Of a stretch of DNA of 64,000 nt, positions 12,494-18,011 are shown piece after piece. The DNA is from Chloropicon primus (lineage: Eukaryota): positions 62,001 to 126,000 of the forward strand of contig CP060756.1 of assembly GCA_023205875.1 (NCBI GenBank), in the 5' to 3' direction. Made by a program: the position numbers and the translations under genes. The notes under the pieces are model-generated. The model was given only the letters and a program-made list of their open reading frames with translations, was not told the origin of the DNA and ran no database searches. Position 1 is the stretch's first letter. Every line of letters starts with the position of its first letter.

Positions 12494-12882
12494 CCCACAA
12501 CCCGAGCACCAACACCGCAACGCCCTCCCTCTCCCTCCCCCTCTCTCCCTCCTCGTTCCTCGTCCTCCACCGCAACTCGTTGACCCTTCTTCTGGTTCCC
12601 CCACCTTTCTTGACTTCCCTCCTTCCCCCTTGCGTCCTCCTGAACCTCTCCAGCTCACTCCCCCTCTCGGCGCCGTGCCAGCCTAATTAGGGCTCCAGAG
12701 GCTTTATCAGCGCGGGGGGCGACCTCATCTAAACAAGGAGAGAGAGAGGGGGGCGTGTTATATATGTATTGTTTCTATATATAAAAAAGATATGAAATAT
12801 ATGATTGGGAGAGAGACAGAGAGAGACATCGGTTGCTCGAGGAGAAGATGAAGAAGACGAGAAAAAAAAAGCATGATGAAAG

Positions 12883-14023
12883 CTAAGCTGCGGAATGGAA
12901 GTACTTGTCGGTCCACGTGTCTACCTTCTTACGCGCGTGCGGGTTCGGCTGCACGCCAATCTTCGACGCGTGCAGGTGCAGGCACGTCTTCCCAGGCTGC
13001 GACTCCGATCGCAGGTACCCATTCGCCTCCAGCTCTGCCGCGGGGATGATCCAAAAGTATGCTTTGCCTTCCACCCACGCCACCGCCACTAGCTCGTCGA
13101 ACGCCCCTGCCGGGTAAGGATCTTTCAGCTGCTTGCCCGCCTCGTCACGCCCGGCGTAGGTGTGCAGGTCGCACATAAACCCGGCGACGCCGTTAGACGC
13201 CGCGCGCGCCGTCTTGAACTGCTGGCGCGTCGTCGCATCCTTGAGCAGGTCGACTTGGGTGTTCTGTCCCTTGGGGAAGGCGTAGTGGTGCTTTGGGAAG
13301 CTCGCCTTGAACGCGTCGATGCCGCGCATCTCGAGCGCTTGGGCCGCGGACGCGAAGTCGTGCCGCGCGGCGTGCTCGGTGACGGTCGTCCACCGACACA
13401 GATGGGCCTGGGCCTGGGCCTGGGCCTGCTCAGCCATTGCACGAGCGCGTCGAGGTTGAGGTCACGCGCGAGCGCGAGCTCACAGTTCTTGCGGCGGGGG
13501 TGACGCTCAGGTCCAGCTTGCCGCGCTCGTTCAGCGCGTTGCCGTTGTACACCCACGCATCGCCGACGTCGCACCGCCAGCACACCACACACATCCCCGA
13601 GTAGCCGGTGACGTTGTGGAAGTTCCACGTATTCGGGCTACCCTTCACGGTGCCGCTCGTCGTCTTGAGCTGCACCGGCAGCCACGCGTCCTCCTCGCTC
13701 AGGCGGAGGAGGACGTCGGCTTTCGTACCGTCGTTTAGCACGAGCGCCGCGCTCGCGGGGAAGGTCGCCTCCCATCTGGCGACGAGGGCGAGCGCCACTT
13801 CGCGCTCCGTGGCGGAGTTCCGGCCGTAGATCGCCAGGTTGCGGGCGCGCTTCACCGCGAGCGCGGCTCGGTCGGTCTCCCTCTTCTTGAGTTTGCCCGC
13901 GCGGTACGCCTCGAGGGCGGCGACGGCCTCCGCCACGGTGGCGAAGTATTCCGTGGGGCGACCGATACGCACTCCGTACGGCTTCTTCTTGCGGCGCTTG
14001 TTATTGAACACCCCCTTGGGCAT
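12883..14023 (-). pseudogene. Frameshifted AP2-like plus tandem PD-(D/E)xK nuclease-like gene
   Basis: Three overlapping frames join by two -1 shifts (near 13498 and 13433). Two D...QxKT motifs: ADVLL..VQLKTT and VDLL..QQFKTA. Confidence 0.6.
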
Positions 14024-14108
14024 GGTCTCGCTCCGTCTTCTGTCCCTCGGCCTCGACGCCCGTCCGTTACTTTTAGTTTTTCGGTTCGCTTCTCGCGGTT
14101 TTGTTTTT

Positions 14109-14120
14109 TTTGGCGCCAAA
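14109..14120. promoter_or_regulatory. Palindromic E2F-type site TTTGGCGCCAAA
   Basis: Perfect 12-bp palindrome matching TTTSSCGC on both strands, upstream of SMC6. Confidence 0.45.
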
Positions 14121-14507
14121 CAGGAGAAGCAGAACCGATCGATCGAAGTGATCGACGAGGGAGAGGCGGCAGGGGAGGGAGGCCGAGGCGGGGCGCGAAG
14201 GCCACGGCGGAAGGAGAAAGAAGGGACCAGGACCAGGACCAGGACCAGGACGAGTGGATTGTTCTGCAGCTTCCTCCTTTCGCGAGGCGAGCGAACGCCC
14301 GGGTTTAGTTTTAGAAGAAGAAAAAGCTTGCCCTTGGTTTGGTTTGGTTAGGACCACCTTCTCCGGACCGAACGAACCAACCTTTGGACGGAAGAGTGAG
14401 AGAGAGAGAGAGGAAGAGAGAGAGGTCCGGGGCCGAAGAGGCCGAGGCGGACGACGACGAAGGCTTTTGTTCCTTTTTTTGTGTTGGGATCATCGTCGTG
14501 GGAGGAG

Positions 14508-17500
14508 ATGACGGGGAGGTTGGGGAAGGGGAAGAGAGTTATGGCGACACCATCGCAGGAGGAGGAGGGAGGGGAGGGGAGCCAGCTCGGCGGGCGTGAC
14601 CCGGTGGAGGGGAAGAGGACAAGATCGGGGAAGGAAGCGACGACGAGCAAGAGGATGAAGAGGGAACCCGTGGGGCAACAACGGAGTGATCTGCTCCGCC
14701 TGGGCGAGTTGGAGAGCGAGACGGAGGAGGAAGCCGCGAGGGCGACGACGGCGAGGGCCTCAGGGGTGTGGAGGGCGGGGTTCATCAAGCGCGTCCACAT
14801 CGAGAACTTCATGCGCCACCAGAACTTCACGGTGGACTTCGGGCCCAACGTGACGTTCATCTCGGGAAAGAACGGCAGCGGGAAGAGCGCGACCTTGTAC
14901 GCCCTGCAGTGCTGCCTGGGGGTGAGGGCGAACAAGATGGGCCGAGGCTCGTCCTTCAAGAGCTTCATCAGGAGGGGGTGCAACTCCGCCCTGGTGGTGG
15001 TGACGCTCTCGAACGAGGGGGAGGGCAAAGAAGCCTACAAGCCCGAGGTGTACGGCTCTTCCATCATCATCGAGAGGAGGATAGACGTCAAGGGGGCGAG
15101 CAGCTTCGCGATAAGGGACGAGAACGGCAGGAAGGTCGCCGCGACGGCGTGGGACTTGCGCAGAGTCCTCGACCACATGAACCTGCTCGTGAACAACCCC
15201 TCGGTGGTGACGACGCAAGACACCGCGAGAACCTTCTTGTCCAACGAGACCAACGACAGCTCGAGGTACAAGCTGTTCATGGACGCGACGTTGCTCAGCC
15301 AGGTGAAGTCGAACTTGACGGGGACGTCGCTGACTGTGGACAAGATGAAGGACCTGCTCTTGGCGAAGGAGAGTGAGGTGAACAAGAAGATGGCAGAGCT
15401 CAAGGTAGCCAAGAAGCGGTTTGACCACGCCAGGCAGATTGCCCAGCACGTGGAGCTCGAGAGTTACTGCGAGAACGTCCTGGTGTGGAGGGAGGTCACG
15501 GCGCTGAGCGATAACCTGGAGGCCATCACGAAGAAACTCGACGTTTCGGCTCCAAGAGTCATGGAGCAGCTGAAGAGCAGGCTGGAAACCGCCATGGCGG
15601 ATCTGGGCGACCTCGAGTCCAACAGGAAAAGGAGGATTCTGGAGGTTCAGAACTTCACCGCGCAAGGCGAGGAGCTGCAGAACTCCGTGAAGCAGTCCAA
15701 GTTGGCCCTGAAGAAGCTCACGAAGCAGGAAGCTGCCCAAGAAAAGTCGCTCGAGAAGCTGAAGGGCGACCTGGCGAACATGCAGCAGGAGAAGGAAGAG
15801 ATGGAGCAAGTCGTCAAGGAGAATGAGACTGTGGACGTTTCTGGTACCCAATCCATCAAGGATGGGCACAAGCGCCAGATTGACGACGCAAAGATGAGGG
15901 AGAAGGAAGTCCATGACGAGCTTGAGCGGCTCCAGCTGTCGATGAGGGAAGAAAAGGACGCGAGGGGTGACCTGAACCGCCGCCTTCGAGACAAGCAGCA
16001 GGCAGAGTCCGTGCTGCGGGGGAAAATAGAGGACTGCGACCGCGATCTCCAAGCTCTGTCAAGCCCAAGCAGGAACCGCGGCGCTAACGCGGCGGCCACG
16101 GCGGACATGTTTGGTCAAGGGTACAGCAACCTGCTGAAGCAGATTAGGTCCAGTGCTTCCAAATTCAGGCACCCCCCGATCGGTCCGCTTGGGATGTACC
16201 TGGAGCTTCGGGACAAGAGCTGGAACGTGGCCATGGAGTGCGCAATCGGAGGCATGCTAGGAATGTTTATCTTGCACGACGAGCATGACTTTCAGGAGTT
16301 CAAGAATTGTGCCAAAAGAGCGAAGATGCGGCCACCCTCCACGGTCATCTCGAGCTTTGATAGGGGGTTGATCAACGTTCCGCGGAACCGGCGTCCTCCA
16401 CAGGGCTACGAAACAGTCGGGTCCGCCCTTAACTGCACTCATCCCTCCTACTCGCACGTGATATGGAACACGCTGATCGACAACAGCAGGATTGAGAGCA
16501 CAATCCTGGTCAAGAACGATGAAGAGGGCAAGCGCGCGATCTTCAACAAGGAGGCTATGCCGTCTACGAGGGCTTACACAAAGGAGGGCTACCTTTGCGA
16601 GCTCAAAGGGCAAACGCAAATCATGAGAAACGCTGTGCAGAAGCGGATGAGACCCAGGCTGAGCGTCGCTGGGTTAGATCGAAGCGAGCAGAAGAATGAA
16701 ATTCAAGCCGCAAAGGGTATCGCCGAGGTGGAGCTCGAATCCGTCGTATCTGAAATCAGGCAACTAAAGGCGAAGTTGAGTGACCGGTCGGCTCGCTGCG
16801 CCAATTTAGAACAGCAAATCGAAGATCGCCACGAGAAGAAGATCCAGCTGGAGGAAGAGATCAGACAAAGGTACGACCGCCTCAAAGACGAGCTTGATGA
16901 GGCTGGGGATGGTGCGGAGGACATGGAAGCCCAAATTACGGCTGCTGAGGTGGAGATCGCCAACATCGAGCAGAAGATAAGCAAAGTCGCGGACATGATT
17001 CAGCAAATTAGGACGGAAGTGGAGACGTGCAAGGCGCAGATGGAAGCCAAGCAGAACGAGATGGACAAAATTGCAAAGCAGAACGACGCTATCGTTTCTA
17101 ATGCGCAGCTTCTCGACAATGACGTGAAGAAGGCCGCTGAGCAAGTCGAGAAGATCAAGGATAAGCAAAACCACGTGCGCCAACAGATCTCGAAACTCAA
17201 ATCAGATCTGGCAGAGCACCAGCCGATCTACGACAGCAAGAAGGAGGCAGCGGAGCAGGTTTGTCCGATGGGTGACCTGGAAGAAGCTCTGAAGGCTGTC
17301 GAGGGGGTCTTGGATTGTGCGCTTGACCTGAGGAAGCAGGAGGACATGGCCCAGGTGGAGAAGCTGCTGAGGAAGCTCCGCCTGAACATCAAAGAGATGG
17401 AAAAGGAGTGCGGGAACCTGGAGGAGCTCGAGTTGAAATTCTATCAATGCGAGAAGGAGTTTGATCAGCACCAGAAGGTGTACGTGAGGATCAGAGAGCC

Positions 17501-18011
17501 CTACGAGCTCATCAAAGAGAGTCTCGAGGATAGGTGGGGCACATTCGAATCGATGAGAAGGCACTTGCAGAAGATAACAAGCAACCACTTCAACAGTAAC
17601 ATGGGAAAGAGAGGGCACTCGGGCCAGATGAAGTTCAATCACAAGGATGAGAAGCTCTCGATCAGCGTGAGGATGAACCAGGGCACGGGGAAGGCAGGGT
17701 CAAAGGTCAAAGACATGAAGAGTCTCTCTGGCGGGGAGAGGTCTCTGAGTACCTTGAACTTCATCCTTGCCCTCGGCACGGAGTGCGAGTCTCCTTTCCG
17801 TGCTGCTGACGAGTTTGACGTTTTCATGGACGCGGTGAACAGGAAAGTCAGCCTGAGAACTCTGTTGACCTTCGCGGTGGATAATCCCCATCAGCAGATG
17901 ATCCTCTTGACGCCCCAAGATCTGTCCCAGGTTGAAGAGATCAGAGAGGAGATCAAGGGGCACCAAGACTACCACCAGAAGTTCATCAAGCTCATCAGGA
18001 TGCCCAAGTAG
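14508..18011 (+). CDS. SMC6: Structural maintenance of chromosomes protein 6
   Basis: Walker A GKNGSGKS, long coiled coils, hinge 'PPIGPLG', signature LSGGERS, Walker B DEFDVFMDAVNR typical of SMC6. Confidence 0.92.
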   Translation: MTGRLGKGKRVMATPSQEEEGGEGSQLGGRDPVEGKRTRSGKEATTSKRMKREPVGQQRSDLLRLGELESETEEEAARATTARASGVWRAGFIKRVHIENFMRHQNFTVDFGPNVTFISGKNGSGKSATLYALQCCLGVRANKMGRGSSFKSFIRRGCNSALVVVTLSNEGEGKEAYKPEVYGSSIIIERRIDVKGASSFAIRDENGRKVAATAWDLRRVLDHMNLLVNNPSVVTTQDTARTFLSNETNDSSRYKLFMDATLLSQVKSNLTGTSLTVDKMKDLLLAKESEVNKKMAELKVAKKRFDHARQIAQHVELESYCENVLVWREVTALSDNLEAITKKLDVSAPRVMEQLKSRLETAMADLGDLESNRKRRILEVQNFTAQGEELQNSVKQSKLALKKLTKQEAAQEKSLEKLKGDLANMQQEKEEMEQVVKENETVDVSGTQSIKDGHKRQIDDAKMREKEVHDELERLQLSMREEKDARGDLNRRLRDKQQAESVLRGKIEDCDRDLQALSSPSRNRGANAAATADMFGQGYSNLLKQIRSSASKFRHPPIGPLGMYLELRDKSWNVAMECAIGGMLGMFILHDEHDFQEFKNCAKRAKMRPPSTVISSFDRGLINVPRNRRPPQGYETVGSALNCTHPSYSHVIWNTLIDNSRIESTILVKNDEEGKRAIFNKEAMPSTRAYTKEGYLCELKGQTQIMRNAVQKRMRPRLSVAGLDRSEQKNEIQAAKGIAEVELESVVSEIRQLKAKLSDRSARCANLEQQIEDRHEKKIQLEEEIRQRYDRLKDELDEAGDGAEDMEAQITAAEVEIANIEQKISKVADMIQQIRTEVETCKAQMEAKQNEMDKIAKQNDAIVSNAQLLDNDVKKAAEQVEKIKDKQNHVRQQISKLKSDLAEHQPIYDSKKEAAEQVCPMGDLEEALKAVEGVLDCALDLRKQEDMAQVEKLLRKLRLNIKEMEKECGNLEELELKFYQCEKEFDQHQKVYVRIREPYELIKESLEDRWGTFESMRRHLQKITSNHFNSNMGKRGHSGQMKFNHKDEKLSISVRMNQGTGKAGSKVKDMKSLSGGERSLSTLNFILALGTECESPFRAADEFDVFMDAVNRKVSLRTLLTFAVDNPHQQMILLTPQDLSQVEEIREEIKGHQDYHQKFIKLIRMPK

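Follow-up and report, generated by a model that had tools for sequence, protein, structure and literature searches.

Free-standing homing endonuclease genes of phages and the WHO elements of yeast lie outside any intron or intein and move by cut and repair; their nucleases belong to the HNH, GIY-YIG or LAGLIDADG folds, and their destination is an allelic or fixed site. In classical homing, which depends on homologous flanks, the gene moves to the allelic site. MepB of Staphylococcus aureus (PDB 4LQE, PF08877) is a single-domain protein from a bacterial operon that appears without the D and QxK residues in our alignment, and for which we know of no mobility. I-Ssp6803I (PDB 2OST, PF11645) is a PD-(D/E)xK homing endonuclease that belongs to a group I intron of a cyanobacterium, and as a tetramer it recognises a 23-bp site (PMC3384342). 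Giant viruses carry MIGE (Major Interspersed Genomic Element), which consists of a single zinc-finger ORF with short non-coding DNA in many dispersed copies and whose mobility mechanism is given as unknown (bioRxiv 10.1101/299784, PMC4669402).

Here we describe a nuclease gene of the marine green alga Chloropicon primus that shares some features with these systems, starting from a 64,000-nt stretch of its genome (the window). It is one copy of an element that is dispersed and polymorphic and whose sole product is a predicted tandem PD-(D/E)xK endonuclease; with a probability of about 0.5 we regard this element as one that spreads as a free-standing selfish gene. Many near-identical copies stand at unrelated loci, with filled and empty alleles, variable ends, mosaic sequences and two invariant motifs. 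I-Ssp6803I is the closest structure to the second nuclease domain and shares the logic of a selfish nuclease, but it has one domain and sits in an intron, whereas the Chloropicon protein has two fused nuclease domains plus an AP2-like domain, no intron, and a nuclear, eukaryotic location at unrelated dispersed sites. Unlike the phage genes and WHO elements, it is found at many unrelated loci and has predicted PD-(D/E)xK folds. MIGE, compared by description only, resembles it in its single ORF, short non-coding DNA and dispersed copies and differs in its viral location and its zinc finger, which none of the C. primus family proteins has. The nearest described lifestyle is that of MIGE and the nearest enzyme is I-Ssp6803I. 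We found no account of the nuclease family in the literature searched, which included a minority of subscription journals, and the word 'endonuclease' has no occurrence in the main texts of both Chloropicon genome papers (PMC6731263, PMC12301720), where the family is unnamed.

On the minus strand an ORF starts at 14023 and stays open as far as the stop at 13430; the coding sequence then passes through a short second frame into a third, which closes at the stop at 12883. The intact paralogue P0007 matches the window at 14023-13496, 13499-13398 and 13404-12886 (tblastn), collinear and in three different frames. The parts of the gene are:

13496..14023, minus strand: gene piece 1, with the N-terminal domain, the long helix and most of nuclease domain 1 (tblastn)
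13889..14023, minus strand: AP2-like domain of three strands plus helix, predicted to bind DNA (structure models)
13428..13495, minus strand: gene piece 2, the end of domain 1 and the linker helix, flanked by both breaks (ORFs, tblastn, read contigs)
12883..13427, minus strand: gene piece 3, nuclease domain 2 and the stop codon (tblastn, Pfam, fold comparison)
13495..13500, no strand assigned: break 1, a G run short by one G (read contigs)
13427..13433, no strand assigned: break 2, a tandem pair short by one GCTC unit (read contigs)
13426..13483, minus strand: 58-nt GT..AG 'intron' of the public gene model P0004 (gene-model comparison)

Piece 1 is 98% identical to residues 1-176 of P0007 and contains the motif residues E73, D103, Q118 and K120, and piece 3 is 92% identical to residues 207-379 and contains E231, D258, Q268 and K270 (both tblastn). 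An earlier note on this DNA, made from its letters, had proposed an N-terminal domain, two motif-bearing modules and two -1 frameshifts; all of them lie at the positions it gave (ORFs, tblastn, read contigs). Break 2 is a 4-nt loss and hence equivalent to a -1 shift in frame terms. Adding 5 nt to the window gene gives a frame of 381 codons by arithmetic, in agreement with the single protein of about 380 aa that the note had expected after repair. Besides the two breaks the gene has no further stop and has lost no catalytic residue.

An extra G after 13495 is present in every covering contig of 7/7 runs and an extra GCTC after 13427 in every covering contig of 4/4 runs, and the broken form with the 1-nt and 4-nt losses is in none of the read sets. 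Several other letters specific to the window copy are likewise missing from the read contigs, which merge the copies and lose rare variants and are therefore unable to decide about the breaks. Short-read polishing of Nanopore assemblies tends to fail within repeats. The assembly carrying P0004 was made from Nanopore reads with short-read polishing (PMC12301720), and P0004 is the window sequence with the 58-nt 'intron' jumping both breaks, likely an annotation patch. We consider it somewhat more probable that both breaks are assembly errors than that they reflect genuine decay; real breaks that are removed by splicing are very improbable.

The high CG content that the note had pointed out was also found, with 137.6 CG/kb and a CpG o/e of 1.26 for the gene against 77/kb and 0.91 for the whole window, a level equalled by 0.5% of 1141-nt windows. 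The coding region also contains an imperfect inverted repeat (13746-13867; 37-nt arms, 81%, 48-nt spacer) and, at 13401-13427, a (CTGGGC)n repeat that encodes a variable QA linker joining the two nuclease domains. A heterozygous 23-bp insertion of this repeat on chromosome 4 is listed in the available part of Supplementary Data 8 of PMC6731263.

An AlphaFold2 model of P0007 from 33 sequences (pLDDT 86.7, pTM 0.75) predicts that residues 1-66 form three strands with a long helix, and places domain 1 at 67-205 and domain 2 at 224-379. The top solved structures in Foldseek were MepB (E 4.7e-8), I-Ssp6803I (2.6e-5) and single-chain PvuII (2.7e-4). With VIA-align, domain 2 aligned to I-Ssp6803I with Z 13.3 (rmsd 3.3, 132 aligned) and to MepB with Z 13.2, in line with the homing-endonuclease likeness that had been suggested, and domain 1 to 1y1o with Z 8.0 and to Hjc-type resolvases with Z 6.9-7.8. 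Both domains of the predicted structure thus show the core alpha/beta PD-(D/E)xK restriction fold proposed from the letters. The E..D..QxK residues are kept in each of them, with D103, Q118, K120, E231, D258, Q268 and K270 in 51/51 family sequences and E73 in 50/51. MepB matches domain 2 by sequence as well as by fold: a Pfam search of the broken gene pieces gave no match, the comparison of piece 3 with MepB (Pfam PF08877) gave E 9.7e-9, and PF08877 is matched by 9/51 family members.

The two modules had been called similar, and while both match PD-(D/E)xK folds, their mutual sequence likeness is weak (BLASTP of the broken halves E 2.8; profile-profile E 0.011, the best of 10 shuffles giving 0.024). 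That they form a single-chain pseudo-dimer is plausible, given that both active sites are invariant, but superposition of their arrangement on single-chain PvuII is poor (rmsd 12-14). By likeness to I-Ssp6803I we predict recognition of a long DNA site, which the two-domain chain could read as a monomer or a dimer. For the N-terminus the topology is compatible with the AP2-type fold of the earlier note, but there is no AP2 Pfam match, and the comparison with the GCC-box domain 2GCC (Z 3.9) is within noise. The N-terminal model had no Foldseek match below E 0.001, and its top fold rows are chains of the Toxoplasma mitoribosome (Z 4.6-6.3), which may be ApiAP2 proteins of that parasite. A distant member, P0132, has an N-terminal Myb DNA-binding domain, so that the front DNA-binding module appears exchangeable.

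The gene lies in an inserted unit with a short 5' leader and a 278-nt 3' tail, and its surroundings are:

12605..14093, minus strand: inserted unit of 1489 nt (read-contig joint and end tests)
14024..14050, minus strand: 5' leader, apparently a truncated remnant of the stretch that codes for domain 2 in the gene itself (13290-13190) (sequence comparison, contig joints)
11462..12493, minus strand: host gene for an F-box protein, downstream of the insertion (above the cut-off for PF00646, E 1.8e-4)
14541..18011, plus strand: host SMC6 gene, head-to-head with the insertion (ORF; name from PMC6731263 Suppl. Data 2, syntenic locus)
14109..14120, no strand assigned: host-side palindrome TTTGGCGCCAAA, 15 nt beyond the insertion edge (pattern search)

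An empty-site joint from 12604 to 14094 is present in run X1 in one contig with a depth of 86.5 and a 28-nt side. In the reference of one strain the gene numbers run without a gap from a metallo-beta-lactamase-fold gene through a hypothetical gene to SMC6 (PMC6731263 Suppl. Data 2); the empty site that the earlier note had suggested looking for, between the F-box gene and SMC6, is present in this reference. Furthermore, at chromosome 3:74671 the available part of PMC6731263 Suppl. Data 8 has a heterozygous insertion of 1534 bp (14 reference and 4 alternative long reads); judged by eye, its 400 visible letters agree with 12601-12997 of the window. From this sequence match it is very likely the insertion of the window. 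The listed 1534 bp is about 40 nt above 1494, and the alignment of this entry could hide a short target duplication. The empty site was thus read at only one locus, from one contig with a 28-nt side and from a table with cells of up to 400 letters. The same part of the table has a second heterozygous insertion of the family, of 2531 bp at chromosome 1:974796 (8 reference and 4 alternative reads), whose start precedes a TTTGGCGGGAATTTTGAA motif by about 130 nt and which extends into the same ORF. In the table as available, the family makes up 2/6 insertions above 1.4 kb, both heterozygous, and 2/10 rows with cells of more than 400 letters. Filled and empty alleles at one site, a feature of homing endonuclease genes, are therefore present, but the unit lies between two genes and outside both neighbouring ORFs, which is not the place of an intron- or intein-borne gene. 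The adjoining host flank at 14094-14465 has about 3x the depth of unique DNA in runs X1 and X2 and a different left neighbour in run X5, and may be duplicated elsewhere.

The inserted unit in the window has no terminal inverted repeat (5/30 terminal matches), no target duplication and no poly(A). Other copies leave the common sequence on the 3' side at 12604, 12685, 12691, 12803 and 12832 among the loose-end rows listed (24/55), and on the 5' side at 14081 or 14094 into one common stretch, this 5' exit being the only one among 7 partial records in run X1; their flanks are known from 30-letter loose ends and from the accessible part of the insertion table. CCAC stands at or next to the end of 3/6 3' flanks, including that of the window copy. 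The ends are therefore variable and lack the inverted repeats of a TIR DNA transposon, although the true 5' end of full copies is only partly visible, and the single ORF has no Pfam or fold match to DDE or other known transposases. Helitrons have 5' TC, 3' CTRR, an AT target site and a RepHel protein; the unit has no such ends and no RepHel-type ORF.

The element might nevertheless be an unrecognised DNA transposon whose tandem nuclease acts on the element ends in a TnsA-like or resolvase-like manner, or a cargo, for example of an IS605-like family. Domain 1 does resemble Holliday-junction resolvases, most copies share one 5' continuation, and the available part of PMC6731263 counts 25 IS605-like genes in this genome. 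In addition, its Suppl. Data 8, as far as available, lists heterozygous insertions of about 2.7 kb at chromosome 3:123680, 6:369520 and 17:327259, two of them clearly one other element, which show a second active mobile family in C. primus. As the five 3' exits and two 5' exits (among the loose ends listed), the absent TIR and the lack of a second ORF in the unit and in a metagenome locus with a relative (L001) speak against it, we regard this explanation as quite unlikely.

The common 5' stretch of the other copies bears what we take to be an E2F-core and a CHR-like motif. Both the single 5' continuation in run X1 and the occurrence of the motif inside the chromosome-1 insertion, in the part of the table available, show that it belongs to the element; the idea that its position near the copies reflects independent targeting was therefore dropped. 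The window copy ends before this motif. The host-side palindrome, presumably E2F-site-like, is the sole strict match of its type in 64 kb (17 matches with a looser pattern). Among the annotated loci with neighbours checked, replication genes are not enriched beside other copies, which weakens the idea that E2F sites are targeted. The 5' leader is longer in other copies, a tandem repeat of this stretch is found in the N-terminus of P0027, and read contigs contain the self-derived joints 13235->13985 and 13261->14038. Derivation of the leader from the gene's own domain-2 coding stretch points to earlier events of self-insertion or template switching.

Copying through mRNA by a helper reverse transcriptase, with the nuclease nicking the target, would explain why the gene is intronless, why the window copy begins about at a possible transcript start and why 3' ends scatter 50-280 nt beyond the stop. 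However, retrocopies usually vary at the 5' end, the unit has neither a reverse transcriptase ORF nor an A tail at its 3' end, and no poly(A) was found at the 6 listed 3' junctions. As the chromosome-1 insertion moreover begins, in the table part available, upstream of the promoter-like motif, this route appears still a little less likely than a transposon or cargo origin.

In order to find paralogues we searched with gene piece 3 and obtained five C. primus proteins with 90-99% identity, and a cluster look-up extended these to 9 distinct proteins (88-100% identical); each of two strains has 7 annotated loci, located for both strains together on chromosomes 3, 4, 6, 12 and 14. Unrelated genes adjoin the copies at 5/7 annotated loci, and 8/9 proteins are uninterrupted full-length gene models. 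Instead of the intact single-copy gene that the earlier note had named as the case against a pseudogene or mobile origin, there is a multi-copy polymorphic family with intact members. The summed contig depth at 12600-14200 is about 10x that of the flanks, which is not a copy number. Five locus tags had no match in the supplement of PMC12301720.

The copies are mosaics, with 175/465 informative site pairs incompatible in a four-gamete test of the 9 proteins; the first half of the window copy is like P0007 and its second half like P0029/P0030. Between the window ORF and other copies, 45 single-letter differences comprise 41 nonsynonymous and 4 synonymous changes (pN/pS 3.2, binomial p 0.014 for the 45 sites), a set from which we left out position 13495 next to break 1, the two letters added at 13751, four non-ORF sites and 3 rows. 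With one double-hit codon scored as one nonsynonymous and one synonymous change, the counts become 40 and 5 and pN/pS about 2.5. Variable positions are concentrated in the N-terminal sheet, the segments following QxK and the C-tail (37/105, against 33/274 elsewhere), segments that were picked after inspection of the data; they are more variable among distant members too, but less strongly (ratios 1.1-2.6 vs 6.3).

This excess of amino-acid change in the predicted DNA-contact segments, together with invariant active sites and relatives in viruses, would also fit restriction-like antiviral nucleases kept by the host, with specificities diversifying against giant viruses and copies as incidental templated duplications. 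Nucleases of mobile elements have been argued to act against competitors in giant viruses (bioRxiv 10.1101/299784, accessible part). We think this unlikely, though less so than the transposon and mRNA explanations above, given the recent heterozygous insertions at new sites (in the part of the table available), the lack of a listed homologue of the 2 copies examined in any of 13 other green algae, the lack of a methylase adjoining the gene in the window or in L001, and leader relics of the element's own sequence, which suggest repeated self-copying.

As the earlier note had suggested, homologues exist in giant viruses, both by sequence and by fold. With the family profile, the clusters found (at 50% identity) number 1067 for a threshold of E 0.001, 486 for 1e-10 and 118 for 1e-30. 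Among ten distant clusters looked up, one contains Emiliania huxleyi virus proteins, one a protein of a bacterial metagenome bin, and the others are unnamed or 'hypothetical'. The same two-domain body is present in Emiliania huxleyi virus proteins by profile (CAZ69471, E 7e-39, profile positions 32-327) and by fold in models of Klosneuvirus KNV1, Hyperionvirus and Aureococcus anophagefferens virus (A0A1V0SIJ8, A0A3G5A8P9, A0A076FH51; 300-404 columns, E 1e-16 to 1e-19), though these giant-virus relatives, which carry no functional assignment, have longer N-termini that differ from that of the Chloropicon protein. Pattern scans of viral contigs and prokaryote genomes, within the limits of the patterns, gave no relative.

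Among six metagenome loci, L001 and L004 have the family gene head-to-head with algal-type host genes, in L001 alone within 1792 nt between two host genes. L003, L005 and L006 have it amid short intronless genes, with DUF5872 in L005; we infer that these virus-like loci are viral. L002 terminates in telomere-like repeats, and about 40 nt ahead of these TTTTAGGG repeats lies the end of its family member (L002:569-1813), in which CxxxxC..CxxC units recur at the N-terminus. Together with nine related proteins on contigs of 1-1.9 kb the telomere-like repeats suggest a lineage at chromosome ends. In L004:3429-4200 a relative adjoining an algal alpha-mannosidase gene is broken near its start and has tandem KATTRAAQAE-type repeats; instability of the N-terminus recurs across the family. 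Relatives are also multi-copy, with three on a contig of 510,924 bp and two on one of 360,087 bp, the full-length pairs on these two contigs being 82-84% identical.

The viral homologues, the foreign CpG content and the broken copies in the window and L004 might be taken for repeated passive deposits from infecting giant viruses that are now decaying. The 9 C. primus proteins form a single clade (100/100) far from the virus-like rows, 8/9 are intact as described above, and no viral genes neighbour the window copy, which makes such deposits very unlikely. The tree is rooted at its midpoint only, so that the direction from virus to alga is putative.

A lone nuclease gene without a helper, ragged ends that bear neither repeats nor tails, mosaic copies and fast change in the predicted DNA-reading strands are fitted best by cutting and templated repair. 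In our best reading, by analogy, the element works like a free-standing homing endonuclease without an intron or intein. The nuclease would cut new, unrelated intergenic sites in the nuclear genome, and an existing copy would serve as template and be copied into the break during host repair, with short end matches. Fast amino-acid change may retune the target of the nuclease, the upstream E2F/CHR-like motif of full copies may time expression to S phase, and the family may derive from giant viruses. Against this reading, the heterozygous insertions and persisting empty alleles show that allelic homing is incomplete or absent. More tentatively, and with less confidence than in the selfish-gene reading itself, we propose a new class of eukaryotic element: a single-gene unit of about 1.5 kb with its own S-phase promoter and a double restriction-fold nuclease derived from giant viruses, which would home ectopically without transposase, reverse transcriptase or TIR and would gain specificities via positive selection and shuffling.

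If true, this would be a minimal selfish nuclear DNA that moves with a nuclease alone, with a tie to giant viruses, whose single-gene dispersed elements had no known mechanism. The nuclease family is large (1067 clusters at 50% identity), and nearly all of it is unnamed. Its natural variants, which differ mainly in the predicted DNA-reading strands, would provide a ready set for studying how the specificity for long sites evolves, and the family is a possible source of compact single-chain nucleases. C. primus is diploid, grows in culture and is heterozygous for filled and empty sites, which opens the mechanism to direct testing.
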